Shown here in pieces: positions 1 to 60,966 of a stretch of DNA of 64,000 nucleotides; the first letter of the stretch is position 1; every line of letters begins with the position of its first letter. This stretch comes from an uncultured delta proteobacterium (GTDB taxonomy: Bacteria; Desulfobacterota; Binatia; UBA9968). Below the pieces are notes generated by a model that saw only the letters and a program-made list of their open reading frames with translations, was not told the DNA's origin and made no database searches. The stretch is from assembly GCA_963767275.1 (NCBI GenBank), contig CAVYDL010000006.1:941867-1005866 (forward strand), given 5' to 3'. A program made the position numbers and the translations under genes.

Positions 1-2319
1 GTGACGAAAGATCTCGGCATCGCCATGCTGATGCGGAAATTCTACCCGCTCACGGGAGGTTATCAAAACCAGGCGTTGCGGCTCGCCACCGAGCTAAGCA
101 AGAGAGGCTTTAGAGTCCATGTCGTCACGCAACGCCACGGGACGCTGCTTCCATATGAAGTCTATCAGGGTATCCCCATTCATCGGGTCTCTGCCTTCCC
201 GTCAGGCCACTTGGCCGCCTGGTCTTATCTGGCTTCAGCATTTTTCTGGATGCTGCGAAACAGACAGCGCTTTCAAATCATTCACGCGAACCGCTCGTCT
301 TCCGGCCTGGTGGCCGGTCTGATCGGGTTCGTGCTGCGGAAACCTGTTCTATACAAATTGACTCGCGGAGACGAGATCGATGTGAAGGGTTTCCGGACTA
401 CTTTGCTAGGCCGATTCAAAGTGCAGTGCTTGAAACATACCGTTGGTAAGTTCGTTGCGATAACCAAGGGGATTGAGGAGGACCTTCGACGGCTGGGTAT
501 TCCGGCAAAGAAACTAGCCAGGATCCCCAACGGAATCGAACTTAAAGATTTTTCAAAATGCTATGACCGCGAGAAAGTCAAGTCAGAATTGGGTTGGGGA
601 CCGGAAACCAAAGTGGCGACTTTTGTCGGCAGACTCATCGCGGTAAAAGGCGTGGACTGGCTGCTTCGAATTTGGCGGGATGTTATCCAGCAGGAAACCC
701 AGGGGCGTCTCTTGATCATCGGAGATGGGCCGGAGCGATCCGCCCTGGAAGCTCAAATTCGCTCTTTCGGCCTTACAGACTCTGTAGCATTGGTGGGGAG
801 GCAAGAAGATGTTTTTAAATTCTTAGCCATAACCGATGTCTTTGTGCTTCCGTCAAGGTTGGAAGGCGTTTCAAATGCCCTTTTAGAAGCAATGTCCCAG
901 GGAGTGCCGGTAATCGTCGCGGACGACGAGCTCGGTGGGAATCGGGAAGTGGTCGATGATTGCATTGACGGCCACGTCGTGAAGATCGGTGATGATAAGT
1001 CCTTTAGCGAAGTTCTAGTTAAACTTCTACGAGATGCAGAACTGCGCAACGACATGGGGCGAAAGGCAAAGCATAAAATCGAGCAACGATTTTCCATGGA
1101 CAGCGTCGTCAATGGGTATTGCCGTATCTACAGTGAATTATCCGCGCTCCACGTCCGACCCGTGGGTGGCCAAAAACCATCCGTAGGAATTTTTTTGGCC
1201 AGGCCGGATCGTAGTTTTCACATGGCCAGGAAACTCCGTGAGAAGGGCTTCGATATCATTCATTACAACAGGGTCGGATATAAAGATGATTCTTACGTCA
1301 AAGTGCGCGGCGGGCCGCTAGCGGCATTAGCGTATCTTTTGCTCCGGACAAAGAACGACATATACTTTACCTCTCTCGGTTTCGTTCCTTCCACTTGGTT
1401 GTATCTGAACAAGTGTTTGCGCGGAAAACCATACGTTTTCAATGCTACCGGCCTGAGGTGGGAGACGTTCGACGACAGGTCGTCTAGAAGACCTTTCTCG
1501 AGCTTTTTTTCGCACCGGTTCTATCCTTTTTTATTAGACTGTACTTTCGCAGGAGCGAGCAGGATCGTCTGTAACAGCCACTTCCTCGAACGGATGATCA
1601 GCGTCCACTATCCAAAATATAAAGAGCGCTTGCTGACGATTTACAACGGCATTGAGTTTGACCGGTACTCATCTGGGCGGCGTCAAGCCCTTCCCCGCGT
1701 TCATAATGGCGAGTTGATTCTTCTCTGCGTGACGGCGCTTAATTTCAAGAATAAATCGAAGGGGCTGCAAATCGTTATAGACGCCTTCGATCATGTCAGA
1801 GCAAAAAGAACGGACGTCAAACTGGTCATCTCTGCCAAGACCTCCAACCCTCTATATCAAAAGGAGGCGGAAAGTTATTTGCGGTCGAAGTCGTGGAGGG
1901 ACTCGGTCACGCTTATGTATAACCATAGCGATATCCCGGACCTGTTGGCGAGCGGCGATATCTTTGTCTACGCCACTCCCAACAACTCCAACGACAGCCT
2001 TCCCAGAGCACTGTTGGAAGCTCAATCGGCGGGTCTGCCGGTCGTCACAACCGACACCAGCGGGTGCCCGGAGATTGTTCGTGACGGAAGGACCGGCTTC
2101 GTCGTTCCGTATGATGCCGCTGAGATGGCGGAAAAAGTTTTGCTGCTGATGGACAATCGGCAGTTACGGCTTGATATGGGTAGAGCCGCCCAGGAATGGA
2201 TCCGACGGCAGTTCAATTGGGATCAGATGGCTGCCGGCTATGCCAAGGTGTTCCTCGAGGTCGCCGCCGGTGAACCACAGATCCTCCAAATGGAAATCAA
2301 TAAGAAAGAGCACATATGA
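1..2319 (+). CDS. Tandem double-domain glycosyltransferase (two GT4/GT-B modules in one 772-aa protein). The ORF begins at the window edge with GTG and may be 5'-truncated.
   Basis: Two separate GT4 C-terminal signatures: 'EAMSQGVPVIVADDELGGNREVV' (~aa 295) and 'EAQSAGLPVVTTDTSGCPEIVRDGRTGFVVP' (~aa 670). Each is preceded by a Rossmann-like N-domain. The stop overlaps the next start as ATGA (2316-2319). Confidence 0.8.
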   Translation: MTKDLGIAMLMRKFYPLTGGYQNQALRLATELSKRGFRVHVVTQRHGTLLPYEVYQGIPIHRVSAFPSGHLAAWSYLASAFFWMLRNRQRFQIIHANRSSSGLVAGLIGFVLRKPVLYKLTRGDEIDVKGFRTTLLGRFKVQCLKHTVGKFVAITKGIEEDLRRLGIPAKKLARIPNGIELKDFSKCYDREKVKSELGWGPETKVATFVGRLIAVKGVDWLLRIWRDVIQQETQGRLLIIGDGPERSALEAQIRSFGLTDSVALVGRQEDVFKFLAITDVFVLPSRLEGVSNALLEAMSQGVPVIVADDELGGNREVVDDCIDGHVVKIGDDKSFSEVLVKLLRDAELRNDMGRKAKHKIEQRFSMDSVVNGYCRIYSELSALHVRPVGGQKPSVGIFLARPDRSFHMARKLREKGFDIIHYNRVGYKDDSYVKVRGGPLAALAYLLLRTKNDIYFTSLGFVPSTWLYLNKCLRGKPYVFNATGLRWETFDDRSSRRPFSSFFSHRFYPFLLDCTFAGASRIVCNSHFLERMISVHYPKYKERLLTIYNGIEFDRYSSGRRQALPRVHNGELILLCVTALNFKNKSKGLQIVIDAFDHVRAKRTDVKLVISAKTSNPLYQKEAESYLRSKSWRDSVTLMYNHSDIPDLLASGDIFVYATPNNSNDSLPRALLEAQSAGLPVVTTDTSGCPEIVRDGRTGFVVPYDAAEMAEKVLLLMDNRQLRLDMGRAAQEWIRRQFNWDQMAAGYAKVFLEVAAGEPQILQMEINKKEHI

Positions 2320-3710
2320 CACGGCGCCCTAACATCTTGCTTATCGTCCTGGATGCCACACGATTTGATTACCTGTCCGCTTACGGGTCTTCCAATACGA
2401 CTCCGAACCTCAACCGCTTGGCGCAAGACGGGATCCTCTTTGAAAGCGCTTTTGCCTCTGCGCCCTGGACCCCGCCATCCCATGCGTCCCTGTTCACGGG
2501 CAACTACCCATCGCGGCACGGGGTCGACGTTAACGAAAATCTTTACTTGAGCAAGGAGAATCGAACCGTAGCAGAAATTCTGTCCGAGAATGGATACCGG
2601 ACTTTCGGGGTGCTGCCCGATGCCCACCTGAGCAGTGATCGAGGATTCCATAAGGGATTCCAGGAATATATCGAGCTGTGGCGGATTCCTTACCTTTATC
2701 CGGAATACGACTGGAATGAGTGCTTGTTGCGGAACCTCCTCTTCGGACGTGACAAGCGGACATATTATACCAATCGGCTGATTCAGCGCTGGTTAAGAGC
2801 GAACTGGCGTGGCACCGACCCCTTTTTCATCTTCTTGAATTACAAGACGGCTCACAACCAGTATCAGCCCCCGCGCGCGTTCAGGCGCAGGTTTGAGAGC
2901 AGGCCCGGAGCGGGGGTGGACATGCGCAAGGTGAAGTTCTATTCCCGCGAGGGCGGTTATCCGTACATGGCTCGGCGTTTCGAGATGACAGATGATGAAT
3001 TGGCCATCCTGAAGTCGTGGTATGCGGGCGCCATCGCTTACATGGACTTCCGGCTCGGGGAACTGATCCAGTCTCTCAAAGAGGCCAGGGCGTATGAGAA
3101 TACGCTGATCATCGTCACGGCTGATCACGGCGAAAATTTTGGCGAGCACCATCTCGCGTATCACATGTTCTGCCTCTACGAGAGTCTTATCCACGTCCCC
3201 TTGATTATGAGCTGGCCGGCAGGCCTGCCTCACGGACGGCGCGTCCCGGGATTGGTATCCCTCACCGATGTGGTGCCGACTCTTGTAGAGCTGCTGCAGC
3301 TCGAAGGGGCAGGAGACGGTCTCCAGGGAACCAGCCTGGTGCCCTTTGATAGCCGGCAGTACCACGACCATGTGTTCGCTGAATTCGGCCGACCCCACTA
3401 CATGCTGAAGCGGCTGCAATCTCGGTTTCCGGGCGACGATTTCTCGCTGTTCGACAAAGGGCTTCGCTGCATCCGAACGGACCAGTTCAAGTTGATCATA
3501 GGGTCGGATGGGAGTGAGGAGTTTTACGATTTAGCGACCGATCCCGGGGAGATCTGCAATCTCTCCGGCAAGCAGTCAAACGTCGCCGCAGAGCTCCGCG
3601 ATAGCCTGGCTAACTGGAGCGGCTCGACGAAAAACTTTACCGCAGCGGCCAAAGAACCAGAAGAAAATGAGTCCGTAAGACGGTCCCTGGAGAAACTGGG
3701 ATATTTCTAA
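2316..3710 (+). CDS. Sulfatase-like protein of the alkaline-phosphatase superfamily. It carries a non-canonical active-site motif (T-P-P-S-H instead of C-x-P-x-R) and appears cytoplasmic (no signal peptide).
   Basis: N-terminus 'ILLIVLDATRFDY ... SAPWTPPSHASLFTG' matches the sulfatase signature region but has Thr and His where the FGly-forming Cys and the Arg normally sit. C-terminal 'TADHGENFGEHH' matches the metal-binding region. Confidence 0.75.
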   Translation: MTRRPNILLIVLDATRFDYLSAYGSSNTTPNLNRLAQDGILFESAFASAPWTPPSHASLFTGNYPSRHGVDVNENLYLSKENRTVAEILSENGYRTFGVLPDAHLSSDRGFHKGFQEYIELWRIPYLYPEYDWNECLLRNLLFGRDKRTYYTNRLIQRWLRANWRGTDPFFIFLNYKTAHNQYQPPRAFRRRFESRPGAGVDMRKVKFYSREGGYPYMARRFEMTDDELAILKSWYAGAIAYMDFRLGELIQSLKEARAYENTLIIVTADHGENFGEHHLAYHMFCLYESLIHVPLIMSWPAGLPHGRRVPGLVSLTDVVPTLVELLQLEGAGDGLQGTSLVPFDSRQYHDHVFAEFGRPHYMLKRLQSRFPGDDFSLFDKGLRCIRTDQFKLIIGSDGSEEFYDLATDPGEICNLSGKQSNVAAELRDSLANWSGSTKNFTAAAKEPEENESVRRSLEKLGYF

Positions 3711-3787
3711 CGGCGCTCCACAGCCGCCGGCGCGTTTCTCACCTGTCTTCCAACCCAGTCCGTTTTTTTACAGAAGGTAGTCAAACC

Positions 3788-4039
3788 ATGGAATGGTTAA
3801 GTCTTATCCGGTGCCCGACATGTTCCGGGACTATTCGCCACGATGGCGAAGGAATGTTCCGCTGCAGTGGCTGCAATGCCAACTATCCGGCCGCGGGGAG
3901 CGTGCCGGACTTTATCGCTAGGGAAGGCGACATCGCCGCCCCGGGGATTGAGCTTGATTATGACTATCACCTGCGCCGCCACACGGCTCCCTGCGCGGTT
4001 TATACAACCGGTTCTGCCGGTCGTTGGAACTTCAATTGA
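3788..4039 (+). CDS. Trm112-like zinc-ribbon protein (CPxC...CxxC). It is probably the N-terminal part of the downstream methyltransferase, split by a frameshift.
   Basis: 'CPTCSGTI...FRCSGCNANY' is a four-Cys ribbon. The same motif is fused to a methyltransferase in the paralog at 23147-24242. It overlaps the next ORF by 16 nt in a different frame. Confidence 0.5.
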   Translation: MEWLSLIRCPTCSGTIRHDGEGMFRCSGCNANYPAAGSVPDFIAREGDIAAPGIELDYDYHLRRHTAPCAVYTTGSAGRWNFN

Positions 4040-4701
4040 TCAAGCGTGAAGCTGACCGGCTCGGTAGGTCTATCGATATGCTTGATGTGGGCTGTGGTAA
4101 TCCCACTCGCTCCAATACCACCTATCATGCACAACTCTTCCCGCTCGCCAGGTTGTACCTCGGGGTAGAACCCTCCCTGCCGCTTGCGTGCCGCGTCCAT
4201 CCTCTTCCATCGGTCGGGCTGGTTCGAGCCAGCGGAGAGCTCCGCGTCTTGAAGGATCGAGTTGTGGATATGGCAATGTCATTCAGGGCACTTGATCGGT
4301 GTGCGGATCCGGACCGCACACTGGCCAACATGGCGGCGGCTATACGACCTGGAGGCCGCATCCTGATCAGCCTGGTCAATAAAAATATCTGGTATGGAGC
4401 GCTGTCCAATCGCTTGCGCGGTATATTGGCCCAACGCTTGTCACCCCAAGAGACGAGGCGCGGCGAGGAAATGTCGCCAAGCGATTTGCGTCGCCGTCTC
4501 GAATCTGTTGGCTTTCAGGATGTCGAACTCTATGACTTGCTCTACTTTTCAGGCCCGCTGAAAAGCAAGGCTTTTAACCGAGTTTTGGACTTGTTCGGAG
4601 AACAGCGGTGTGCCGCCGTTCTCCGCCAGGTTGACCAACTTGGCCGGCGCATCGCCCCCGGCCGGGGTGGCATGTTTGTCGCCGTGGCACGCAAACCGTA
4701 A
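4024..4701 (+). CDS. Class I SAM-dependent methyltransferase
   Basis: Motif I 'MLDVGCGNP'. Domain order matches the fused Trm112-MT paralog at 23147. Confidence 0.65.
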   Translation: MELQLIKREADRLGRSIDMLDVGCGNPTRSNTTYHAQLFPLARLYLGVEPSLPLACRVHPLPSVGLVRASGELRVLKDRVVDMAMSFRALDRCADPDRTLANMAAAIRPGGRILISLVNKNIWYGALSNRLRGILAQRLSPQETRRGEEMSPSDLRRRLESVGFQDVELYDLLYFSGPLKSKAFNRVLDLFGEQRCAAVLRQVDQLGRRIAPGRGGMFVAVARKP

Positions 4702-4940: not shown

Positions 4941-5689
4941 ATGGAGATAACTATGTTTCAGAATCAGAAATGGACGAACTGTTTTCTTATCATCGCCGGC
5001 GCAATCTTGATAGGCCTGAGCTTCAATTCATCTGCCATTGCGCAAACCTGCGGTGGCACCGTTCCGTGCAAGTGCGGGGATAGCGTGATCGCCAGCCGAA
5101 CGATCCGGGGCGATCCGGTCGTCGGTGGTTTCTGTCCGGGCGACGGACTCATCATGGACACGCCCGGTGTAACCCTGACCCTCAAGGGGAATCTCTTTGG
5201 AAGTGCGGATCCGCACACCACGAGGGGCCCGGGCATCGGTATACACATCACCGCCGATAACGTTACTCTCCGAGGCGGAAGAGTCGAAGGTTTTCAGTAT
5301 GGGACCTACGGAACAACCAACGGTTCCTCGATTGGGGCGATCACTAACGATCACAATGCCGTGAGTTCGGTCCACATCACCGGCAACAACAACACGTTCA
5401 ATGGAACCGACGGCGCCCACGTGCTTGGCCCCAACGCTGGCGATGGGTTCGTCGTCATCGGGGACGACAACGACTTCATAGAAACCTTTACCGAGAAGAG
5501 TGCTCCCGGCCAAGTAGGGCTGCGAGTCATAGGCTCTGGTAATTTTTCCGAAAAAATTGGACAAATCAGGGCGAGGGCGGCGGGATCTGGGTAACAGGCG
5601 GGAACAACATTGATGGCGGCGGCAATAAAGCAAAAAACGTAAATGGGCAACCGATATGTGAGATCGACGGGATCCCCTGCAAAAAATAG
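4941..5689 (+). CDS. Secreted Cys-motif parallel beta-helix protein, copy 1. It is frameshifted at an A6 run (5552-5557); the frame-restored C-terminus ends '...GGGNKAKNVNGQPICEIDGIPCKK'.
   Basis: Signal peptide 'MFQNQKWTNCFLIIAGAILIGLSF', then 'AQTCGGTVPCKCGDSVIASRTIRGDPVVGGFCPGD', then ~22-aa PbH1-type repeats (GxxNxxxG). The +1 frame after 'gaaaaaatt' restores the conserved C-x-I-D-G-x-P-C C-terminus seen in copy 2. Confidence 0.7.
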
Positions 5690-5825
5690 CTGAGCTGTTA
5701 ACTGCGGAATAGTGAAAGAGGCGGCCGGCGCGCCATGGTCCGAGATCGCCTGGCTAAAGGCCAGAGTGAATTGACCACAAGCCATAAGATCTGACCGTAA
5801 AGGCAGGCAGTGAAAGGGAGGTAGT

Positions 5826-6575
5826 ATGTGGAGCAAGTGGATAAGCTATTTTGTTTTCAGCAGTGTTGTGATCCTCGCCGGTCTGGTTTTTCCCCTGCCG
5901 GCCCTGGCGCAAACCTGTGGCGGCACCGTTAAATGCAAGTGCGGCGACAGCGTGATAGCCAGCCGGACGATCCAGGGAGACCCGGTCGTTAAGAGTGTCT
6001 GTCCAGGCACCGCACTCTTCATGAGCACGCCCAACGTCACCTTGATCATCAAAAATGGCGGCCTCGTTGGGAGTCTGGATGTGCACTCGCAGTGGGCGAC
6101 CGGCGATGGCATAAACATTTCCGCGGATAACGTCACTGTCCGGAAGGGTAAAATCGAGGGTTTTCAGCATGGGATCTTTGGGATAACCAACGGCTCGACA
6201 ATCTCAGGGGTCACTACCGAGCACAATGCCGTGAACGGCATCAATATATCCGGCAACGGCAACACGATCGAAGCAAGCGCGGGCAGCCACAATACTAGCT
6301 CCTTGGCGCAAGACGGGATCCTGATCACTGGAGACGACAATGTCGTGACCGACAACTATGCAGAAAAGTCGGTCAGCGGCTTCGTAGGTATCAGGGTCGT
6401 GGGCTCTGGCAACTTTCTCCAGGATAACTTCACGAAATTAAATGATGGTGGTGGGGTCCAAGTCACCGGCGATGGCGTCATTGATGGTGACAACATCGAT
6501 GGTGGGGGTAACAAGGCGGGAAAGACCGCCGGGACGCCTAAATGCGAGATCGACGGAAACCCGTGCCTGCCTTGA
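5826..6575 (+). CDS. Secreted Cys-motif parallel beta-helix protein, copy 2 (intact)
   Basis: Signal peptide, then 'AQTCGGTVKCKCGDSVIASRTIQGDPVV...CPGT', beta-helix repeats, and C-terminal 'PKCEIDGNPCLP'. Confidence 0.8.
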   Translation: MWSKWISYFVFSSVVILAGLVFPLPALAQTCGGTVKCKCGDSVIASRTIQGDPVVKSVCPGTALFMSTPNVTLIIKNGGLVGSLDVHSQWATGDGINISADNVTVRKGKIEGFQHGIFGITNGSTISGVTTEHNAVNGINISGNGNTIEASAGSHNTSSLAQDGILITGDDNVVTDNYAEKSVSGFVGIRVVGSGNFLQDNFTKLNDGGGVQVTGDGVIDGDNIDGGGNKAGKTAGTPKCEIDGNPCLP

Positions 6576-6684
6576 GGATTGACCGTTACAGGTGGGACTA
6601 TGGAGCGGACTACGGCGACCTCGCGCAGATCGGAAGTGCCACGAGAGCTGTGACAGGTACCGCAATTTACCGAGAGGAGCAACC

Positions 6685-7680
6685 ATGTTTCAGAATCAGA
6701 AATGGACGAACTGTTTTCTGATCATCATCGGCGCAATCTTCATGGGCCTAGGGTTTTATTCGCCGATCCTAGCGCAAACCTGCGGCGGCAACATCCCATG
6801 TGAATGCGGGGATAATGTGGTGGCCAACCGGACATTGGTTTCCGGTCAAGATCCTATCGTAAGAGCCGTGTGCCCGGGCGATGGGCTAATTATGAACACC
6901 CCAGAAGTCGTCTTGAATCTCAACGGCAACAAAATCTTTGGTTCAGGTAGCGGTGTGGGTATTCTCATTGGCGACGGGGTTAATAACGTCACCATCGAGA
7001 ACACAGGCGGCGGGGGGGCGGGTCCTGATAACTTTGGCGTCGGCATCGCCACCGCTGGCCAGACCAGTGGCTCAAGAATTAGCGCGGTCAGGCCCCATGC
7101 GAACGGATTAGGGACAATACCACTAGGCGATGGGATATTCCTGAAGGGCGATGGGAACGTGTTGATTGGCATCCTGGCAAAAAACAACGGCAACAATGGA
7201 GTCACGGTGATCGGCGATGACAACGTACTCCAAGGTCACAACGATGAATACAATGGGGTCCATGGAATATTTGTGGAAGGTAATGGCAACCAGCTGAATG
7301 CCAATCTGGCAAGCGAGAATCGGAAGAAGTTTCAGGGCGCGGGGATATGGGTGGAGGGGGACGGCAATACGGTCGAACAAAGCAAGATCACCAAGATGAA
7401 CACCTGGGGGATCGTCATCCATGGCGATAACAACAGCTTGAGAAAGAACGATGTCACGAAGCAGGACATCGATGGGATAGTAGTGGTCGGCGATGGCAAC
7501 GTGCTGAAGGACAACAAGTCGCAGAGTTCCAAGGGCGTTGGCATTAGCGTTGAGGAGGATGACGGCGTCCCCAACTCCAACGCCGCCGCCAGTACGGGAA
7601 ATATTGTCAGCGGTAACCGGCAGGGGCCCCAGTGTAGCATCTACGGGGTCACGACGACGCCGACCTGCATCCAGAAATAA
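6685..7680 (+). CDS. Secreted Cys-motif parallel beta-helix protein, copy 3. It is longer (331 aa) and has a Gly-rich insert.
   Basis: Its first 35 nt are identical to copy 1 (atgtttcagaatcagaaatggacgaactgttttct). It has 'AQTCGGNIPCECGDNVVANRTL...CPGD', many GDGN/GNGN beta-helix rungs, and C-terminal 'PQCSIYGVTTTPTCIQK'. RBS GAGAGGAG precedes the start. Confidence 0.8.
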   Translation: MFQNQKWTNCFLIIIGAIFMGLGFYSPILAQTCGGNIPCECGDNVVANRTLVSGQDPIVRAVCPGDGLIMNTPEVVLNLNGNKIFGSGSGVGILIGDGVNNVTIENTGGGGAGPDNFGVGIATAGQTSGSRISAVRPHANGLGTIPLGDGIFLKGDGNVLIGILAKNNGNNGVTVIGDDNVLQGHNDEYNGVHGIFVEGNGNQLNANLASENRKKFQGAGIWVEGDGNTVEQSKITKMNTWGIVIHGDNNSLRKNDVTKQDIDGIVVVGDGNVLKDNKSQSSKGVGISVEEDDGVPNSNAAASTGNIVSGNRQGPQCSIYGVTTTPTCIQK

Positions 7681-7761
7681 GGATTCTTCCAACAGAATGT
7701 CCGTATTCTTTAAGGGCTCTCGCATCGCCGACCTCGGCAGCCATAAGCAGAGGAATATTTA

Positions 7762-8976
7762 ATGAGTACGGGTAAGCTGACAGTTGCGGCCTACAGCCAT
7801 TTCGGCGCCAGAGGCTTGAAAGGGGTCGAGACGTACTACCTCGTGCAAGAGGCCTGGAGGAGAGGATATTTAGAAAAGGTGATTGCCGTATCGAAAAAGC
7901 GTTGCCGTTTTGAGTTCGACCTCGCCCTTGTCGACACGCTTCCGGGAGAGTCACGGCTTATTTCCGGGCTGGTCCAGATCAAGGAAAAAGCCTGGCAGGC
8001 GTTCCCATCGAGGTGGTTCGGCGAGATGATTTTTGACCGCTATGCGGCTTCAAGGCTGAAGCGCTCAGGCGGCACCCTGATCCTGACCCCAGGAATGATC
8101 CACACAGCGCGGAAAGCTAAAGACCTCGGGTATACGATCTTACTGTACGGTGCCACTCCTGACCCTAGATATCTTATGGAGCAGATCCAGACCGAACGGG
8201 CGGCCCTCGGCTTTAAAGGCGGGGAAGATGATAAAGATCGCTCGCGGATGGTGGCACGCTGGACGGCTAGCTTGGCGTTAACAGACCACCTCCTCGCCGT
8301 CTCGGAGTTTTCCAGGGACACCTACGTCAAGTACGGTTTTCCGCTGGAAAGAGTATCGGTCGCTCCTCTTGGGGTCGCTCTGCAACGGTTCCCGCTAACA
8401 GCCCCTCCCACGGATAGCTGTTTCACCTACCTCTTCGTTGGTCACGTGAATGGAACAACGGGAATCGTGAAAGGGTTGCAATATCTCTTGCCGGCCTGGT
8501 GTGAGCTTAAATTGAAAAACGCTAGGTTGCTGGTCTGCGGAAAGATGGGCGCCGAGGGACGGGAAGTGATTCGGAGATATGACGGAAGGCTGCACAATGT
8601 CGAGTTCACTGGGCAAGTTAGTGACCCGGCGGAGTATTATCGCAAAGCGGCGGTGTTTGTCTTGCCATCGGTTGCCGAAGGGATGGCCAAGGTAACAATC
8701 GAGGCTATGGCCACCGGACGACCTGTCATTGTCACCCCAAACTGCGGAGCCGTGGCGCGCGATGGCGTTGATGGTTTCTATGTCCCAGCGCGAGATGTGG
8801 AGGCCTTGAAGGAGAGAATGCTCTATTTCTACAACCATCGCGAAGAGATCGCGAGGATGGGCGCCAACGCCAGTGAATGGGCCCAGAGGTTTACCTGGGA
8901 GAGATTTAGTCGGCAGATCGCTGATGTCATCGTGGGACCTCCACTCTGCAATAAGGTAGAGGTCGAGAAACGATGA
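7762..8976 (+). CDS. GT4 family glycosyltransferase. It is a paralog of the gene at 35680-36930.
   Basis: 'EGMAKVTIEAMATGRPVIVTPNCGAVARDGVDGFYVP' is a GT4 C-domain. Its N-terminus 'AAYSHFGARGLKGVETYYLVQEAWRRGYLEKVIAVSK' is near-identical to the 35680 gene. Confidence 0.85.
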   Translation: MSTGKLTVAAYSHFGARGLKGVETYYLVQEAWRRGYLEKVIAVSKKRCRFEFDLALVDTLPGESRLISGLVQIKEKAWQAFPSRWFGEMIFDRYAASRLKRSGGTLILTPGMIHTARKAKDLGYTILLYGATPDPRYLMEQIQTERAALGFKGGEDDKDRSRMVARWTASLALTDHLLAVSEFSRDTYVKYGFPLERVSVAPLGVALQRFPLTAPPTDSCFTYLFVGHVNGTTGIVKGLQYLLPAWCELKLKNARLLVCGKMGAEGREVIRRYDGRLHNVEFTGQVSDPAEYYRKAAVFVLPSVAEGMAKVTIEAMATGRPVIVTPNCGAVARDGVDGFYVPARDVEALKERMLYFYNHREEIARMGANASEWAQRFTWERFSRQIADVIVGPPLCNKVEVEKR

Positions 8977-10538
8977 AATCGGTCCGGGGGAAGATCGCTA
9001 AGGCAGCCGGCCTGCTTCTGGTGTTGCAAGTCTTTGAGCAGGCCACCGGCCTGATGAAACAGATGGTGATCGCCGCTCAGTTCGGAACTTCGGAAACGAT
9101 GGACGGCTATCTGATAGCGACGACCATTGTCGGGCTTATTCTTCTCTGGGTCGGCCTGCCGATCCGCCAGACTCTGATCCCCATGTTCCGCCACGATCTC
9201 GCGAAGCGGGGTGAACGAGCGGCTTGGGCCAATGCCAGCGTTCTCTTCAATAACCTACTGCTGGTTCTTATCGGTATCGTTCTCTTGGGGACACTAATAG
9301 CTCCTTACCTGGTGAGCATCCTGGCTCCCGGTTTCGATGAGAGCGCGCTGTCCTTGGCCACTTCTTTGGCCCGGATCACGATGGCCAGTGTGGTCTTTGT
9401 CGGTATGGGAAACGTGTTGTCCCAGATATTCTTTTCTTACGAAAGGTTCTTCCAGCCCGGCATCGCGGGCAGCGTGAATAACGTCGTGACGATGTTGGCA
9501 CTGCTCGCTTTAGGTGGCACGTACGGCATCTATGGTCTGGCCGTCGCCGTCGTGATAGGCGGCGGTTTTCACTTCGTGCTTCAGCTGCCGATTCTGTGGG
9601 AGAAGCGGAAATTTTATTCTGCCACGGTGAACTTTCGCCATCCGCACATGGTCGAGACCGGCAAGCTGAGCTTGCCGCTGCTGATTTCCACTGGCGGTAA
9701 CGAGTTGGCGAGAGTTACCGATCGGATCTTTGCCTCGCTCTTGGCTGCCGGAAGCCTCTCGGCCCTTGCGTTTGCCCATAGGCCAATCACGGTCCTGATC
9801 GAATTTCTAATCCACCCGCTTAATACAGCGACTTTGCCTCACTTCGCCAAGCTCAGTGCCGAGGGAGATTTTCGCACGCTGTCCCGCCAGCTCTTTTACT
9901 ATGTTCGTCTTATTGCTTTCTTTACGCTTCCCATCGCCGTCGGCCTCATGCTGCTGGCGGAGGACGCCGTCAGAACGCTCTATGGACGGGGGGCCTTTGA
10001 TGAAGCCTCGGTCCGCTTAACCGGTCAGGCGCTGTTCTTCTATGCGATCGGAGTGCCGGCCCAGGCGATAATGAGAATCTTCAGAAATGCTTTTTTTAAT
10101 CTGAAAGATACCTGGACGCCGACAAAAATAGCCCTTGGTCGTATCGCGCTCAAAATCATTCTCTCTTGGATTCTGGTCCAACCGATGGCCCATCGGGGTA
10201 TCGCCTTGGCCGAGTCTCTCTCGCTGATTGCCAACGCCTTCTTTCTCTTCTGCTTTCTGCCAAGGGAACTGAAGGGCAAAGAGGGATGGAAGACTCTGGC
10301 GGCGTTCGGGCAGACTCTGGCAGGCTGCGTCGTCATGGGAACCGTGGTGTACTTCGCGCAGGAGAAGCTAAACGGAATGATCAGTCTACCGCTGGAGCTC
10401 GTTACCTTGGTCATGCTGGGCGCAGCGACTTATGGCGCTACCGCGCTCCTCTTCCAGGCGGAGGTGAGCCACTCGATCCTAAAGACGGTGACGGAGTTGG
10501 GCGGAAAATACCTCAGAGGAGCTGCCAAAACAACATGA
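8973..10538 (+). CDS. MurJ/MviN-family lipid-linked oligosaccharide flippase (MOP superfamily)
   Basis: 521 aa and polytopic. The N-terminal pattern 'GLMKQMVIAAQFGTSETMDGYLIATTI' fits the MurJ N-terminal consensus (G..R....A..fG.s...DAf..A). Its start overlaps the GT4 stop (ATGA). Confidence 0.75.
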   Translation: MKSVRGKIAKAAGLLLVLQVFEQATGLMKQMVIAAQFGTSETMDGYLIATTIVGLILLWVGLPIRQTLIPMFRHDLAKRGERAAWANASVLFNNLLLVLIGIVLLGTLIAPYLVSILAPGFDESALSLATSLARITMASVVFVGMGNVLSQIFFSYERFFQPGIAGSVNNVVTMLALLALGGTYGIYGLAVAVVIGGGFHFVLQLPILWEKRKFYSATVNFRHPHMVETGKLSLPLLISTGGNELARVTDRIFASLLAAGSLSALAFAHRPITVLIEFLIHPLNTATLPHFAKLSAEGDFRTLSRQLFYYVRLIAFFTLPIAVGLMLLAEDAVRTLYGRGAFDEASVRLTGQALFFYAIGVPAQAIMRIFRNAFFNLKDTWTPTKIALGRIALKIILSWILVQPMAHRGIALAESLSLIANAFFLFCFLPRELKGKEGWKTLAAFGQTLAGCVVMGTVVYFAQEKLNGMISLPLELVTLVMLGAATYGATALLFQAEVSHSILKTVTELGGKYLRGAAKTT

Positions 10539-11349
10539 TGCATACAACACTTCCGATCCAGACGCTGGTGCCTCAGCTCGTTACCCTCGCTCACCGAGCG
10601 GGCGAAGCAGTCATGAAGTTTTATTCTCAAGACGAGTTGGGGACAACTTATAAAGAATTTGACTCGCCGCTGACCTGCGCGGACATCGCGTCCCATGATT
10701 TGATTGTGGAACAACTGCAAGCGCTGACTCCAACCGTGCCGGTATTGTCAGAAGAGTCCAAGGCGGTCCCCTATCAAGTGCGACAGGCATGGCGGACATT
10801 CTGGCTAGTAGACCCACTGGATGGGACCAAAGAATTCATCAAACGCAATGGCGAATTTACCGTTAACATCGCGCTCATCGAGGACGGGCGGCCGGTTTTT
10901 GGTGTCGTGCATGCTCCAGCCATGGAGGTGACTTATCTTGGCCGCTCACGGAATCGGCGCGTTCAAGCAAACCGCTCAGGAGTCAAAACGGATTCCAATC
11001 GCCGTCAGGCAATGCGAGAGCACGAGGCTTAAGGTAGTCGTCGAGCCGTTCACATGCGGGCGATGAGCTCGAAAGATTTCTCGATAAGATCGCGCCTGCT
11101 GGAGTGCTCAGTATCGGTAGCTCGCTAAAAATCTGTCTGGTCGCGGAGGGCGAAGCGCATCTTTACCCACGCCTCGGGCCAACCATGGAGTGGGACACCG
11201 CTGCCGCCCAGTGCGTCGTTGAAATGGCGGGCGGGGCGATCGCCGATCTGGCGAGGGCAAACTCTGAGTATACAATAAGCCCGATTTGGCACAATCCCCA
11301 CTTCATCGTCAGCGGCACTCCCGACCTTTCCCTGGCAGAGTTATTTTGA
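10535..11349 (+). pseudogene. cysQ: 3'(2'),5'-bisphosphate nucleotidase CysQ (PAP phosphatase, inositol-monophosphatase fold), disrupted by two frameshifts
   Basis: 'WLVDPLDGTKEF' is the IMPase motif. The reading continues in a second frame ('LAAHGIGAFKQTAQESKRIPIAVRQCESTRLKVVV') and then a third ('SRSHAGDELERFLDKIAPAGVLSIGSSLKICLVAEGEAHLYPRLGPTMEWDTAAAQCVV'). Confidence 0.7.
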
Positions 11350-11483
11350 GAACAGGGAGTGTGCCGCTGGACGGTGATAAACATGGTGTTGTGATCGCGC
11401 TGTTCAAGGATGCGAGACGATGAAATCAGTATATCAACCCTAAACTACTCCGCACTTGCAGAAGCGTCCATGCGGCTTACCGA

Positions 11484-12283
11484 ATGGCGACTGCGCCGCT
11501 CCGGGTCATGCCGGATTTCCTCTTTATCGGCGGCAACCGATGCGGCACGCCGACGCTCTATGAATACCTGTGCGGCCATCCATGCTTCGCGCCGTCGGTG
11601 CGAAGCGAGAAGTGCATGTATTTCGATCTGCACTTCGCAAAAGGCGTGAACTGGTACAAAGGCATTTTCCGTCGGTCGGATTACAAATACTCCGTCACAC
11701 AATTACAGCAGGAAGAAGTTTTTACCGGAGAGGCAACGACCTATTACATATTTCACCCCATGCCCCCCGGCAGAATCTAGCAAACGTGCCGAAGATCAAG
11801 CTCATCCGCTCTTGCGCAATCCCGTCGACCGCGCCTACGCGCAGTATCATCAGAAAGTCAGGAGAGGTAACGAGCCGCTCTCATTTGAAGACGCGATAGA
11901 CGCGGAGCCTGAGAGACTGCAAGGCGAGAGGGAAAAAATGCTGGCCAATGAACCCTATAACAGCTTCAACTACCGTCGACTATTCCTATCTCACCAGGGG
12001 CGTCTATGTGGATCAGACTCGCGCACTGGATGAATCTGTTCCCAAAGAACAGCTGCTGGTCATGTGCAGCGAAGACTTGCGCAGGGAGCCGAGCCGGGTT
12101 TTGCAAGAGGTTCTACAGTTCCTCGAGCTGCCGGCGTGGGAGCCGCAGGCGCAGAACAATTATGGTCAAGCCGAGTATCCGAAGATGGATGCTGCCGTGC
12201 GGGCACGTCTCATCGAATACTTCCAACCGCACAACCGGCGTTTACATGATTTCTTAGGTCGGGATTTCGGCTGGGACCGGTGA
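11484..12283 (+). pseudogene. Sulfotransferase (subtype A), split over three frames. It is a paralog of the intact gene at 13237-14151.
   Basis: 5'-PSB 'PDFLFIGGNRCGTPTL' and 3'-PB 'RNPVDRAYAQY' lie in different frames. One shift is at a C6 run (11763-11768), another is near 11807-11812, and a third is near 11950-12030. The order of pieces matches the intact paralog. Confidence 0.7.
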
Positions 12284-12352
12284 TCCATGGAGCGCGCAGT
12301 GGCTCACCGCAGTGCTCCTCAGTATAGGGATGATTCAACAGGAGTTACAAGA

Positions 12353-13236: not shown

Positions 13237-14151
13237 TTGGTGCAAGTCATGAATCGACTCATTGATCCGAAGCCACTGCCGCCTTTTCTGAAGCGGCTAG
13301 TCAAGGCTCCTCGGGCGCTGACGGCCAGAGTCCGACTCCTGCCGGATTTTCTCATCATCGGGGCGCAGCGGTGCGGCACCACTTCTCTGCAAAGGTATTT
13401 AATACAACACCCCTCGATAGCGCCTGCGTTCAGGAAAGAGGTGCATTATTTCGACAAGAATCTGAAGAAGGGGGTGACCTGGTACCGGACGCATTTCCCG
13501 TCAGCGCCCTACAAGTACTTCGTAACCAAAGTCCTCCGTCGGCGGTTTTTGACGGGTGAGGCGAGCGCCGCGTATCTTTTCTATCCGCATGCGCCGAAAA
13601 AGATCCTTGAAACGGTGCCCCGCGCCAAGCTGATCGTTCTGCTACGGAACCCGGTGGATAGGGCGTACTCTCATTACCAGCACGAAGTGAGCTTAGAGCA
13701 TGAAACTTTGCCGTTTGACGAGGCGATCGAGCAGGAGCAGGAACGACTTCGTGGCGAGAGAGAGAAAATGCTCGCCGATCAAAGCTATGACAGTTACAAG
13801 TACCGACACTATTCTTACCTGTCGAGGGGCGCATACGCCGACCAGCTGGCAATCTGGATGAAATTCTTTCCCAGAGATCAGATGCTCATTTTGCGGAGCG
13901 AGGATTTCTTTGCCGAACCGCCCAAGATCTTTCAGAAGGTTCTACGGTTCCTCGATCTGCCCCTATGCGAGCTCGGCGAGTATAAGCAATACAATGCGCG
14001 GGACTACTCAACCATGGATGCGGCAACCAGAGCTCGGTTAATTAAGTACTTCGAACCGCATAATCGCCGCTTACGGCAACTGGTTGGTCGAAAGTTTCGC
14101 CTGGAACCAATAAGCCCCACGCGCTATGAAGTTTGCCATTCGCGACGATGA
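13237..14151 (+). CDS. Sulfotransferase (subtype A), intact
   Basis: 'LPDFLIIGAQRCGTTSL' and 'LLRNPVDRAYSHYQH' are the PAPS-binding motifs. Confidence 0.8.
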   Translation: MVQVMNRLIDPKPLPPFLKRLVKAPRALTARVRLLPDFLIIGAQRCGTTSLQRYLIQHPSIAPAFRKEVHYFDKNLKKGVTWYRTHFPSAPYKYFVTKVLRRRFLTGEASAAYLFYPHAPKKILETVPRAKLIVLLRNPVDRAYSHYQHEVSLEHETLPFDEAIEQEQERLRGEREKMLADQSYDSYKYRHYSYLSRGAYADQLAIWMKFFPRDQMLILRSEDFFAEPPKIFQKVLRFLDLPLCELGEYKQYNARDYSTMDAATRARLIKYFEPHNRRLRQLVGRKFRLEPISPTRYEVCHSRR

Positions 14152-28357: not shown

Positions 28358-30298
28358 ATGAAACAGCGCAGTTTTTCAACGGCTGACACCGCGGCTAGCG
28401 GGGAAATTTACCCAACCGCCGTCGGATCTCTCCATGGAAAAATATATGAGTCTGACTGGCTTATTTGGGCCGTCCAAGCGTGTATAAGCGTTTTGGGGCT
28501 TATTCTTTTCAGCCCTCTTCTGATTTTGATTGCTTTTACAATTAAGCTTACCGATGGCGGGGATATATTTTACCGCGGCGAACGGGTCGGCCGGGGAAAG
28601 TGTAGATTCAAGATCTACAAATTCCGGACGCTCGTCGAGGATGCAGAAAAAAAGATCGGCGCCCGGCTATTGCGCACCGAAGATCAGGGCATCTATTACA
28701 CGAGGATCGGAAAATTTTTAAAGCGAAGCAAGCTTGATGAATTACCGCAGCTGCTGAACGTTATTCGAGGTGAGATGCGGCTTACGGGTCCTCGACCGGT
28801 GCGTCCTATCTTCCTCGATCAGTTCGAGCGCACCATCCCAAATTACCCTGATCGTTTCTTGGTGCCCCCGGGTATCACAGGGGTTGCCCAACTTCGCGGC
28901 GGTTATTACACTTCACCACGGAACAAACTTCGTTACGATCTCATCTACATCAAGCGGCGGTCCCTGCTTTTCGATTTCAAAGTCGTCTTCTTCACATTCG
29001 CTAAAATACTCAATCGATGGTTCAACAGAGGGTTTTTCGTTCTTTTCCTGTTTCTCTTTGTTTCCTTTCTCCCGGCTGGCTTACAAACTTCTTTATACGT
29101 AACACTCTTCGGCACCAGGATCAGCCTCCTTTATCTATTCATTATCGTTTTAGCGGCTGGACTCTTCTTTAAGAAGGGGCCTACTCAGGTTTGCCTTTAT
29201 CGTGGCCCGCTCAACTTTCCGCTGGTTTTGTTTTTCGCTCTTAGCGCCGTCTCTGCGTTTTTCGCCGAGGATTTGGATCAGGCCCTCTTGAGGGCCGGTT
29301 ATTACATCGTCACGGGGTTCATGGTTGCCTTTCTGATTGTGAACAGCCTCGCGACCAAGGGGTTTATTATTTTGACGGCGCGAGTCATCGCGCTGACCTC
29401 GGTCGTGATGTCGGTGTTTGGGCTATTTCAGATCTTTCTCTTCAATTATACCGTCGCCTTGGCCGCGCCTTTTTCCGGCGAACAACTGGCCGGCTATATC
29501 CGGGCATCTTCCCTTCTTGGCAATCCGGTGGTTCTGGCGGTATACCTCGTTTTGGGACTGCCGCTCCTGCTGTCGGAGGTGACCCGCGCTTCACGGCAGA
29601 GGGAGCGAGACTTCTGGCTCGTCTGCGCCACCCTGTCTTTCGTCGGCATCTTTTTCACTCAGACACGGATCGGACTCTTAGCTCTGCTCGTGACCGGAAC
29701 CGCCTTTCTTTCGCGACGCCGGGGTCACGCGCTCTTCTTTGTCACGATCTGTTTAGTCTGGTTGCTGTCTCTGATTTCGCTCGGCGGCGCTCGCTTCTCA
29801 CCCGCCGGGATGCGGGGCGAGGTGACCGCCTGGGTGGCAAAACAATTGCACATTCTCCGAGAGATTCCGGTTAAGACATGGCTAATTGGTGGCGGAGTCG
29901 TCACACCCTACCCGCTCGTCACAGAACCTATAGCGGAGATCGCTCAGTCCGCAGAGGAAGAGGCCGCCCGCGAGATACCGAACATGCATGTCACTTTAGC
30001 TCTGGAGCATGGAATAATCGGCTGGTGTGTGATCGTCTGGCTCATCCTGACTGCTGTGCGGACGATGACTCAGGCTCATCGAAGTACAAGAGACCACCAG
30101 CTCAAGTCTATTTTATGGGCGATCGTGTCGTCTCTGGTCGGTTTTCTGGTCTCCATGAACGCCATGAACGTTTTTCACAATCTCACGCTGCAGATCTTTT
30201 TCTGGAGTTTGATCGGTATTGGGCTCGGCATCGTGGTGCATCTAAAAGGTTACCGGCGGTCCAATCTGATCTGGCGGTTCGGCGATGCCGGTGATTGA
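28358..30298 (+). CDS. Fusion protein: an N-terminal small (PglC/WbaP-C-like) polyprenyl-phosphate sugar phosphotransferase joined to a C-terminal polytopic O-antigen-ligase/Wzy_C-like domain
   Basis: Residues 1-230 'LILFSPLLILIAFTIKLTDGGDIFYRGERVGRGKCRFKIYKFRT...DELPQLLNVIRGEMRLTGPRP' are the bacterial sugar-transferase domain. Residues ~240-640 contain at least 10 TM helices with 'FTQTRIGLLALL' (Wzy_C/O-antigen-ligase signature). Confidence 0.75.
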   Translation: MKQRSFSTADTAASGEIYPTAVGSLHGKIYESDWLIWAVQACISVLGLILFSPLLILIAFTIKLTDGGDIFYRGERVGRGKCRFKIYKFRTLVEDAEKKIGARLLRTEDQGIYYTRIGKFLKRSKLDELPQLLNVIRGEMRLTGPRPVRPIFLDQFERTIPNYPDRFLVPPGITGVAQLRGGYYTSPRNKLRYDLIYIKRRSLLFDFKVVFFTFAKILNRWFNRGFFVLFLFLFVSFLPAGLQTSLYVTLFGTRISLLYLFIIVLAAGLFFKKGPTQVCLYRGPLNFPLVLFFALSAVSAFFAEDLDQALLRAGYYIVTGFMVAFLIVNSLATKGFIILTARVIALTSVVMSVFGLFQIFLFNYTVALAAPFSGEQLAGYIRASSLLGNPVVLAVYLVLGLPLLLSEVTRASRQRERDFWLVCATLSFVGIFFTQTRIGLLALLVTGTAFLSRRRGHALFFVTICLVWLLSLISLGGARFSPAGMRGEVTAWVAKQLHILREIPVKTWLIGGGVVTPYPLVTEPIAEIAQSAEEEAAREIPNMHVTLALEHGIIGWCVIVWLILTAVRTMTQAHRSTRDHQLKSILWAIVSSLVGFLVSMNAMNVFHNLTLQIFFWSLIGIGLGIVVHLKGYRRSNLIWRFGDAGD

Positions 30299-30575: not shown

Positions 30576-31553
30576 ATGAATATCCTTAAACGAATACTGC
30601 CTCAGCGTGTGTCCGAGACGGCGGCCCAGGCCGTTCAATCTGCTCCTCAATCCACAAGCGCTGCCCAGAAGGATCGGGTCGAGGCTGCACGACCTTCACC
30701 GCAGGCAACCAACAACTACATCATCGTGGTGCTCGATAGCTGTCGCTACGATAGCTTCATGGCCGCGGCGCCTCCCACCTTGAGCCGGCTCGGTCCCATC
30801 GAGCGCCGCTGGAGCTATGCGTCGTGGACCGCTCCCTCGCATTATAACCTGCTGATGGGGTTGCTCCCCCACTCCAGCCCGCCCCATGTCTACGCGTCGG
30901 AGTACTACAAACACGACTTCCTCAAATATCGAGAACGCCTGGGCGCCGAGCAGGTAGAGTTTAAGAGCCTGGTGCCGCACCTCTTCTTGCCCACGTTACT
31001 CAAACAAAAGCTGGGCTATCAGACTCACGCGCTGGTGTCGCTGCCGGTGCTCAATCCCGCGACCCTTATCAACAAAGACTTCGATCGCTTTATTTTAATG
31101 CCCAAGCACAACGACATGGCGGCGATGATCGATCGCATGACATTCTCCCCCGACCGGCCGTCTTTTTACCTGTTGAACGTAGGCGAGACGCACTACCCTT
31201 ATGCGTTGCCGGATGAGCCCGAGGACTGCTGGCCGAAAATTCACGGAGTGCACGGCGTTTTTAAACACTTGGATGACCTGGTGGTGGGAGGAAAGCTGAT
31301 CGAGGACGAAGGAGCACAGGACAAGTTCTTCGACCAGGACAAACTCGACGACCTGCGTGAGCGTCAGATTGGGACCGTGCGTTACCTCGATGGGATCTTC
31401 GCCCGCCTTTTTGACGTGGTGCCGCCCAACACCTATATCACGGTGACCGCCGATCATGGTGAGTTGTTTGGCGAGGAAGGGTACTTTGGCCACGGGCCCA
31501 TTTACCATGAGAAGGCCTACGAGGTGCCCTTCGTCGAGGGTAAAATCCGCTAG
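30576..31553 (+). CDS. Sulfatase-like alkaline-phosphatase-fold protein, copy 2 (325 aa). It has the same Thr/His active-site variant as copy 1.
   Basis: 'YIIVVLDSCRYDSF...ASWTAPSHYNLLMG' and 'TVTADHGELFGEEGYFGHG'. Confidence 0.65.
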   Translation: MNILKRILPQRVSETAAQAVQSAPQSTSAAQKDRVEAARPSPQATNNYIIVVLDSCRYDSFMAAAPPTLSRLGPIERRWSYASWTAPSHYNLLMGLLPHSSPPHVYASEYYKHDFLKYRERLGAEQVEFKSLVPHLFLPTLLKQKLGYQTHALVSLPVLNPATLINKDFDRFILMPKHNDMAAMIDRMTFSPDRPSFYLLNVGETHYPYALPDEPEDCWPKIHGVHGVFKHLDDLVVGGKLIEDEGAQDKFFDQDKLDDLRERQIGTVRYLDGIFARLFDVVPPNTYITVTADHGELFGEEGYFGHGPIYHEKAYEVPFVEGKIR

Positions 31554-31755
31554 GAAGAATTCTTTTGCGTGAGTACTTGCGGTTGCAATCAACTTTGACC
31601 CGCTGACTCGACAGAAGATGCCTGAAATTACTTCAAAGAGTGAGGGCGCGAATAGGTATTGCAGAAAAAATTGATGGGTCGTGAGAGTAGGATTATTTCT
31701 ACCACACATAGTAGAAAAATCACGGGGCCAAAAAAAGCACAGGGAGGATAAGACT

Positions 31756-47735: not shown

Positions 47736-47748
47736 CAATCTGAAAATT

Positions 47749-59097: not shown

Positions 59098-60966
<1,869 letters not shown>

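Follow-up and report, generated by a model that had tools for sequence, protein, structure and literature searches.

The 64,000-nucleotide stretch analyzed here (the window; contig CAVYDL010000006.1 of the uncultured delta proteobacterium assembly GCA_963767275.1, Binatia, UBA9968) is occupied by a large polysaccharide cluster that encodes many GT4 glycosyltransferases, a MurJ/Wzx-like flippase, and a priming sugar transferase, together with DUF2334-type deacetylases, AsnB-like amidotransferases, methyltransferases, and a carbamoyltransferase. Within this cluster lie two open reading frames (ORFs), here called ORF A and ORF B, both annotated as sulfatases, whose products have the sulfatase fold and belong to the alkaline phosphatase (AP) superfamily. 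An earlier note on this DNA had drawn attention to a T-x-P-S-H motif in both proteins, aligned to the sulfatase signature C/S-x-P-x-R. Both ORFs and the alignment of the motif were confirmed, as were the quoted peptides in their translations (SAPWTPPSHASLFTG in ORF A and ASWTAPSHYNLLMG in ORF B).

ORF A is translationally coupled to a glycosyltransferase gene: the double GT4 gene upstream ends in a stop codon that overlaps the ORF A start, an ATG at 2316 (ATGA). The putative ribosome binding site of ORF A is purine-rich (aagaaagag). The double GT4 reading frame is open from the first base of the window, and this gene may therefore continue upstream of it. Neither ORF A nor ORF B contains a signal peptide or a membrane or hydrophobic segment (Kyte-Doolittle, 19-residue window; highest means 1.28 and 0.87, respectively), which fits the cytoplasmic location that the earlier note had read for both proteins.

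Pfam assigns ORF A to Sulfatase (PF00884, 4.5e-46), Phosphodiest (PF01663, 5.5e-19; 69.4 bits against a gathering cutoff of 23), and SGSH_C (2e-12). HMMER alignments of ORF A with the solved sulfatases 6pt6 (C84S), 4uph, and 7oz8 place T52 over the Cys or Ser of the formylglycine (FGly) position and H56 over the Arg. An AlphaFold2 model of ORF A built from 54 sequences (mean pLDDT 92.5) agrees with this register: T52 opens helix 52-61 after strand 40-46, D13 closes strand 6-12, and D270 and H271 come after strand 263-268. Such a placement of nucleophile and metal ligands is canonical for the AP superfamily. Alignment and model together uphold the proposal that Thr stands at the nucleophile position. 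A Foldseek search of the PDB with ORF A ranks S1 sulfatases, phosphonate monoester hydrolases (PMH), and choline sulfatase on top (E ~1e-29, TM-score 0.66-0.75), and both ORFs match NCBIfam models (arylsulfatase, choline sulfatase, STM4013, EptA, and MCR) below threshold only.

Table 1. Features of the window and of the other loci compared (EPS, exopolysaccharide; PAPS, 3'-phosphoadenosine 5'-phosphosulfate; APS, adenosine 5'-phosphosulfate; GT, glycosyltransferase).
Locus	Feature	Position	Strand	Remark
Window	Double GT4 glycosyltransferase	1..2319	+	Directly upstream of ORF A
Window	ORF A	2316..3710	+	464 aa; family A; soluble Thr-type enzyme of AP superfamily with sulfatase fold
Window	ORF A D13, first metal-ligand Asp	2352..2354	+	A14 next, in place of second sulfatase Asp
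Window	ORF A motif W51-T52-P53-P54-S55-H56	2466..2483	+	T52 at FGly/nucleophile position, H56 at sulfatase Arg position
Window	ORF A H180	2853..2855	+	Aligns with conserved His of sulfatase H-x-P segment
Window	ORF A D270-H271-G272-E273	3123..3134	+	Metal-binding DHGE segment
Window	ORF A H283	3162..3164	+	Stands where sulfatases have conserved Lys
Window	ORF A C-terminal tail L458-E-K-L-G-Y-F464	3687..3707	+	Family hallmark L-x-x-[LM]-G-Y-x
Window	MurJ/Wzx-like flippase	8973..10538	+	
Window	CysQ-like inositol-monophosphatase domain ORF	10166..11032	+	Domain at residues 136-267; true start probably past flippase stop
Window	Canonical sulfotransferase	12574-13227		
Window	Canonical sulfotransferase (Sulfotransfer_1/3)	13237..14151	+	
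Window	Canonical sulfotransferase	26288-27154		
Window	Priming sugar transferase (Bac_transf) fused to polytopic membrane domain	28358..30298	+	Directly upstream of ORF B
Window	ORF B	30576..31553	+	325 aa; family B; compact Thr-type enzyme of AP superfamily
Window	ORF B motif W84-T85-A86-P87-S88-H89	30825..30842	+	Nucleophile motif
Window	ORF B D293-H294-G-E...H306	31452..31493	+	H306 aligns to conserved Lys of PMH/sulfatases
Window	Canonical sulfotransferase	38159-39052		
Window	PAPS synthase fusion (PUA_2 + ATP-sulfurylase + APS kinase)	59191..60966	+	
Window	TauE-family transporter	61221-62012		After PAPS synthase fusion
L001	PEP-CTERM-type EPS cluster			GT4, family A gene, flippase, sulfotransferase
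L002	Halobellus salinus AglB cluster			
L002	Tail-bearing ORFs	8923-9888, 13241-14233, 16346-17314		
L004	Cluster with GT, radical-SAM, flippase			
L005	Group of RGP, A-like, ORF B orthologue, GT1, methyltransferase			ORF B orthologue 73% identical
L005	ORF B orthologue	11541-12554		
L008, L009, L026	ORF B orthologues			
L022	Tandem of three AP-like genes, flanked by GT4 genes	8001-12234		Bacterial
L022	Tail-bearing ORF	9410-10825		
L024	Haloarcula onubensis AglB cluster			Five AP-like paralogs
L024	Tail-bearing ORFs	2489-3838, 5379-6764, 11451-12797	-	
L024	Tail-bearing ORF	6859-7830		
L025	ORF B orthologue	8001-8966		

ORF A belongs to a large family (family A). Of the candidates scored, at least 659 are homologues at E≤1e-10; the nearest comes from Candidatus Binatia (88% identity), and the list reaches haloarchaeal 'sulfatases'. 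Among the listed homologues in which a motif was found (n = 107), 99 have T-x-P-x-H and seven have S-x-P-x-H. Conservation across the family was read from a MAFFT alignment of 259 full-length sequences extending down to ~33% identity. R16, W51, P54, H180, D244, D270, H271, and H283 are each present in 259 of 259 sequences, D13 in 257, K392 in 258, H56 in 247, and T52 in 244, with Ser in the other 15. Position 14, the second Asp of sulfatases, is occupied by Ala, Thr, Ser, or Cys and by Asp once in 259; this alignment shows no conservation over the K-x-H region of sulfatases (102-104), and the distal sulfatase Lys has become a His (H283 in ORF A, H306 in ORF B). An exhaustive search from a haloarchaeal member returned 16,417 representatives of 50%-identity clusters at E≤1e-30, a number that will also count true sulfatases; in the best 150 of these, all W-[CSTA]-x-P matches carry a Thr or Ser nucleophile and none a Cys. 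The near invariance of the Thr, the metal ligands, and three His residues over 259 diverged sequences and in the ORF B family indicates an active site under selection, and the retention of the motif in nearly all listed homologues of both proteins shows that its occurrence in the window is not a matter of chance.

The T-x-P-S-H motif is therefore an ancestral, old trait in two distinct large families. The earlier note had described it as a coordinated change in two divergent paralogs, a framing that proved wrong since the motif is ancestral in each family (with the 659 or more homologues of ORF A and 5907 of ORF B) and does not reflect parallel change in this genome. Thr in place of Cys is in itself well known: this exchange is already documented within PF00884, in 30 of the 59 Pfam seed sequences (PMC5066984), and Thr has never been shown to give FGly (PMC5066984). 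NCBI names such proteins 'sulfatase-like hydrolase/transferase'. Relatives of 650-730 aa (P0371, P0372, P0404, P0415, P0421, P0424, P0437, P0444, and others) carry four to seven predicted N-terminal transmembrane helices before the W-T-x-P-S-H domain, an arrangement like that of LtaS and EptA, and others, of 900-1500 aa, contain the domain in two copies.

ORF B, which starts with an ATG at 30576 behind its own ribosome binding site (GGGAGA), has neither the C-terminal subdomain nor the C-terminal L-G-Y tail of ORF A. Its catalytic core, comprising D54, T85, H206, D293, H294, and H306, is common with ORF A and sits on a compact domain the size of that in EptA and LtaS. Pfam recognizes only Sulfatase in ORF B (1.7e-8), a PF01663 search gave no match, and the motif region aligns weakly (E 0.03-0.3) to the nucleophile segment of the Xanthomonas nucleotide pyrophosphatase/phosphodiesterase (NPP), SLTFPNHYTLVTG. 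The structural model is poor (pLDDT 64.5, active-site loops below 50), and the Foldseek ranking obtained from it, with EptC, GacH, LtaS, and YejM first and mixed with sulfatases, is a hint only. ORF A and ORF B align over ~300 aa with 25% identity (E 1e-12), and WTPPSH falls in register with WTAPSH. The two represent two different, separately widespread families, for which 'paralogs' is a loose term.

Searches with ORF B gave the 5907 matches at E≤1e-5; the best 120 are all 72-95% identical, and 118 of these 120 keep SYASWTAPSHYNLLMG. The disparity between the two families is visible at a single locus (L005), where the ORF B orthologue is far closer to its counterpart in the window than the family A protein of the same genome is to ORF A, at just 33% identity. 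The neighborhoods of ORF B orthologues vary: at two independent loci the gene lies behind a class II aldolase gene, at one behind a UDP-glucose dehydrogenase gene, at one between cysS and an LPG_synthase_TM/GT87/GT2 group, and at one beside a family A gene. Because close orthologues occur in such varied contexts outside EPS clusters, ORF B is not simply a cluster partner of ORF A. It has no stable glycan context, its family is very strongly conserved, and it probably performs a related Thr-based group transfer or hydrolysis.

Comparisons with characterized enzymes define where ORF A departs from the canonical sulfatases. S1 sulfatases and PMH (6PT6, 4UPH, 7OZ8, 2W8S) provide its best sequence and structure matches and share the two-subdomain fold, including the C-terminal subdomain, as well as the first Asp, the His of the H-x-P segment, and the D-H/N-G metal segment. 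In contrast to these enzymes, ORF A has Thr for the FGly precursor Cys or Ser, His for Arg, His for the distal Lys, and Ala, Thr, Ser, or Cys across its family for the second Asp; it has no conserved K-x-H and no signal peptide, and of the Lys/His set H180 alone is kept. The S1 signature C/S-x-P-x-R is absent from both proteins (T52/H56 in ORF A, T85/H89 in ORF B). With Thr and His in place of the sulfatase catalytic residues throughout both families, ORF A and ORF B cannot be classical, FGly-dependent sulfatases, as the earlier note had argued. The window ORFs scanned contain no formylglycine-generating enzyme, anaerobic sulfatase-maturating enzyme, or radical-SAM domain.

The NPP enzymes (PF01663; Xanthomonas 2GSN) share with ORF A and ORF B the T-x-P-x-H(-Y) motif followed by TG, and the D...DHG metal site. 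The motif is of the NPP, or type I phosphodiesterase, type: ORF A combines T-x-P-x-H with a PF01663 score above the gathering cutoff, and ORF B gives the weak NPP alignment. The overall similarity of ORF A to NPP is nevertheless far weaker than to sulfatases, and NPP lacks an SGSH_C-type C-terminal subdomain. No acidic partner was found in ORF A for an NPP-type second metal site (D-x-x-x-H plus a distal His), and H180 and H283 occupy the sulfatase His and Lys positions. EptA/MCR-1, EptC, LtaS, and GacH likewise have Thr at the nucleophile position, a single acidic residue with D-H ligands, and a DHGE-x(n)-H segment, and the polytopic N-terminal membrane domain of EptA and LtaS has a comparable counterpart in some family A relatives. 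ORF A and ORF B, however, are cytoplasmic, lack a membrane domain, have a different nucleophile motif, and score far under the curated cutoffs (best EptA score 32 bits against 561). Both ORFs also give weak, partial matches (E ~1e-16) to the STM4013/SEN3800 family (NF038075), compact AP-superfamily proteins of ~260-330 aa, the size of ORF B; at 60.4 bits for ORF A and 58.4 bits for ORF B against a cutoff of 250, neither is a member, and a literature search for STM4013 found no functional data. ORF A thus lacks the defining S1 residues, reaches no curated NCBIfam cutoff, and is without the membrane domain of EptA and LtaS.

The genomic context of family A was examined in the window and at nine other distinct loci. 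Glycan clusters surround the gene in the window and at six of the nine (L001, L002, L004, L005, L022, and L024; Table 1). Canonical sulfotransferases stand beside family A in two Binatia-type clusters only, and none is visible in the stretch examined of the multi-paralog clusters L022 and L024. Side-by-side AP-like paralogs of this kind are the pattern expected of regiospecific tailoring enzymes. The window itself holds a complete sulfate-activation set, namely the PAPS synthase fusion, the TauE transporter, and the CysQ-like protein; taken with the four sulfotransferases, this set leads us to expect a sulfated product. A role for ORF A as the PAP (3'-phosphoadenosine 5'-phosphate) or PAPS phosphatase of the pathway was considered and dropped, as the CysQ-like gene is present.

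The closest experimental precedent comes from Zaretsky et al. (2025) and concerns three proteins with an 'alkaline phosphatase domain' that are encoded in the aglB cluster of Halobacterium salinarum (PMC11980604). Two of these are VNG1056C (Agl30, Q9HQQ3), which is membrane-bound, and VNG1057C (Agl31, Q9HQQ2), a cytosolic member of the InterPro arylsulfatase family; the closest structural neighbors of both are S1 sulfatases (PMC11980604). Each is required for one of the two sulfates on a tetrasaccharide linked to dolichol phosphate (DolP), and either one, expressed alone in Haloferax volcanii, sulfates the host glycan; deletion of the sulfatase-like genes in Hbt. salinarum lowers sulfation rather than raising it (PMC11980604). 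The report is silent on formylglycine, active site, and donor. In the searchable literature since 2023, it is the only one that ties sulfatase-like proteins to sulfotransferase activity.

ORF A resembles these archaeal proteins in fold, context, solubility, and C-terminal tail, and on this comparison would be a bacterial, EPS-cluster case of the recently recognized sulfatase-like sulfotransferases. With Agl30 and Agl31 it has in common an AP-like core, a sulfatase fold, a place in a glycan-assembly cluster that also encodes a flippase and glycosyltransferases, and an L-x-x-L-G-Y-x tail; like Agl31 it is soluble and cytosolic, and haloarchaeal family A members also lie in AglB clusters (L002, L024). 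It differs in being bacterial, in its proposed acceptor, an EPS unit rather than a DolP-linked N-glycan, and in having canonical sulfotransferases in its cluster. The comparison was made by description, context, and termini deduced from the published cloning primers, and the tail is a criterion deduced here, not a published one. The primers decode to the C-termini ...LEELGYT for Agl31 and ...HLEDLGYL for Agl30, and ORF A ends in SLEKLGYF. L458 is present in 252, G462 in 251, and Y463 in 248 sequences of the family A alignment, and the [LM]GY tail is C-terminal in most full-length members. When all 286 ORFs of at least 200 aa in the window and in all fetched loci were considered, 25 carried the tail, and all 25 are AP-like with a D[HNQ]G motif. 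The alignments of ORF A with solved FGly sulfatases do not reach the tail region. The tail could serve in oligomerization, in docking to the membrane or a partner, or as a lid over the active site. Among its bearers are haloarchaeal proteins of ~320 aa that have no Pfam match and different nucleophile motifs.

Searches for a direct sequence link found none. A homology search from the Halobellus member had no Halobacterium or Haloferax entry among its best 120 matches, the primer-deduced termini of Agl30 and Agl31 were absent from the best 150 of the 50%-identity cluster representatives, a scan of genome contigs recovered the locus of the query alone, and neither of two metagenome scans, for the exact primer and for a degenerate form of the tail, turned up anything relevant. 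Agl7 of Hfx. volcanii is presumably sulfatase-like as well, though this is not used as evidence here. The protein (HVO_2046) is needed for sulfation of DolP-hexose (PMC3892788).

We propose, with a probability of roughly 45%, that ORF A is a Thr-nucleophile transferase, most likely an O-sulfotransferase, that adds sulfate, or else some other anionic group, to a lipid-linked EPS repeat unit. ORF A retains an intact single metal site of the AP superfamily (D13, T52, D270, H271), where T52 would be bound to the metal, and invariant His residues (H56 and H283, plus H180) take the place of the Arg and Lys with which true sulfatases bind sulfate. Thr-type members of the superfamily such as NPP, EptA/MCR-1, and LtaS form a covalent Thr intermediate, which in the transferases is resolved by an acceptor hydroxyl. 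Since Thr is not convertible to FGly, a Thr-O-sulfuryl or Thr-O-phosphoryl intermediate cannot collapse by FGly elimination and would need an incoming nucleophile, a requirement that suits a ping-pong transferase of the EptA and LtaS type. An activated donor, PAPS or APS, would charge T52 to give the Thr-O-sulfuryl (or Thr-O-phosphoryl) intermediate, and a hydroxyl group on the lipid-linked repeat unit would then accept the group while the unit still faces the cytoplasm and has yet to be flipped. Sulfation of a lipid-linked glycan is what soluble Agl31 and membrane-bound Agl30 carry out, on the dolichol-phosphate-linked N-glycan. From the coupling to a glycosyltransferase gene, the PAPS supply, the flippase, and the priming transferase we infer that ORF A decorates a lipid-linked EPS unit; sulfate is favored as the transferred group on the strength of the genetics of Agl30 and Agl31 and of the capacity of the cluster to make PAPS. 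Cytoplasmic sulfoester transfer, one option among those listed in the earlier note, is through the Agl30/Agl31 work (PMC11980604) now the best-supported function.

Several observations weigh against this proposal. The evidence on Agl30 and Agl31 consists of genetics and heterologous expression, with no in vitro activity, donor, or mechanism in the report (PMC11980604), and the homology of these proteins to ORF A, though probable, is based on the tail, on how the paper describes them, and on the context that they have in common. The tail-bearing Haloarcula paralogs carry other nucleophile motifs; Agl30 and Agl31 therefore fall within a wider tail-bearing group, and the presence of W-T-x-P-S-H in them is not proven. 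Haloarchaeal homologues at L021 and L023 lie outside obvious glycan clusters. Within the window, four canonical PAPS-type sulfotransferases mean that a further one is not required. Finally, the His-rich Thr site and the partial matches to PF01663, EptA, and MCR fit phosphoryl chemistry equally well, and the relatives with four to seven N-terminal transmembrane helices recall LtaS and EptA.

These last points lead to the alternative that ORF A, and ORF B with it, is a phosphodiesterase or phospho-substituent transferase like NPP, EptA, or LtaS that adds or trims phosphate, phosphoglycerol, or phosphoethanolamine on a lipid-linked glycan or a nucleotide-activated precursor. We regard this, the main rival, as possible, if on balance improbable. 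The NPP-type T-x-P-x-H motif and the PF01663 score of ORF A speak for it, as do the weak alignment of ORF B to NPP TFPNHY, the DHGE...H segment with its partial matches to the EptA, MCR, LtaS, and YejM models, the exchange of cationic Arg and Lys for His as in Thr-type phosphotransferases, the polytopic N-terminal domains of some relatives, and the neighbors of the low-confidence ORF B model (EptC, GacH, LtaS, and YejM). Against these stand the proximity of ORF A to S1 sulfatases and PMH in both sequence and structure and the fact that no curated phosphotransferase model is reached. Moreover, cytoplasmic proteins without a membrane domain would have no access to the phospholipid head-group donors that serve EptA and LtaS on the outer face, the cluster is equipped for sulfate activation, and the sole sulfatase-like proteins of such clusters studied by experiment are tied to sulfation (PMC11980604).

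An editing hydrolase, that is, an FGly-independent sulfatase or phosphatase in which Thr and water strip misplaced sulfate or phosphate or degrade PAPS, APS, or PAP, would be in keeping with the sulfatase fold and its SGSH_C subdomain, with the NCBI name, and with the canonical sulfotransferases of the Binatia-type clusters, whose presence leaves room for editing. We consider it unlikely: the residues with which S1 enzymes handle sulfate esters (FGly, Arg, both Lys, and the second Asp) are all missing, the cluster already has its own gene for a CysQ-like PAP phosphatase, most clusters with several family A paralogs lack a visible canonical sulfotransferase over the stretch examined and so would offer nothing to edit, and the Hbt. 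salinarum deletions lower sulfation (PMC11980604). Loss of the canonical sulfatase signature might also mark catalytically dead relics serving as scaffolds or glycan-binding subunits. For proteins whose Thr, metal ligands, and three His residues are essentially invariant, the pattern of a selected active site, this is very improbable.

A broader and more tentative suggestion is that family A and the wider tail-bearing group may form a mechanistically new class of carbohydrate sulfotransferases, in which a sulfatase fold would move sulfate from PAPS or APS through a covalent Thr-O-sulfate at the metal site to sugar hydroxyls. Such a class would be widespread in bacterial EPS and archaeal N-glycan pathways, would be systematically misannotated as 'arylsulfatase A-like', and would have T-x-P-S-H and the invariant His triad as its catalytic signature. 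Thousands of database entries named 'arylsulfatase' or 'sulfatase' lack every residue that makes sulfatases work, and genetic work in one archaeon indicates that proteins of this appearance add sulfate rather than remove it. The W-T-x-P-S-H and D...H...DH...H elements supply a catalytic hypothesis open to mutational testing, and they carry the notion beyond the N-glycans of haloarchaea to EPS clusters of bacteria. Since the archaeal report gives no catalytic motif (PMC11980604), this signature is a testable addition to it and not a new category. If the suggestion is true, the annotation of sulfated-polysaccharide pathways needs correction, and glycan sulfation gains a new enzyme scaffold.

Other features of the window merit record. 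Four paralogous predicted secreted proteins (4941-5594, 5826-6575, 6592-7680, and 31681-32819, the last directly downstream of ORF B) have no Pfam match; an N-terminal hydrophobic segment is followed by A-Q-T-C-G-G-x-(V/I)-x-C-x-C-G-D and by Gly/Asn-rich repeats (GNGN, GDGN) that suggest a beta-helix. Several genes appear split or truncated (21185-22940, 24256-25466, 47683-49024, 12574-13227, 16674-17801, and 3788-4701). They include an AsnB whose GATase and synthase parts occupy overlapping frames, two GT4 genes divided into overlapping ORFs for the N- and the C-domain, a sulfotransferase and a pyruvate kinase that cover the C-terminal part of their profiles only, and a Trm112-like zinc ribbon apart from its methyltransferase; these could be frameshift errors of the assembly or pseudogenes. 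A glycerol-3-phosphate oxidase/dehydrogenase-type gene (DAO + DAO_C, 46041-47735) also lies inside the polysaccharide cluster and could matter should the pathway produce a glycerol-phosphate substituent.

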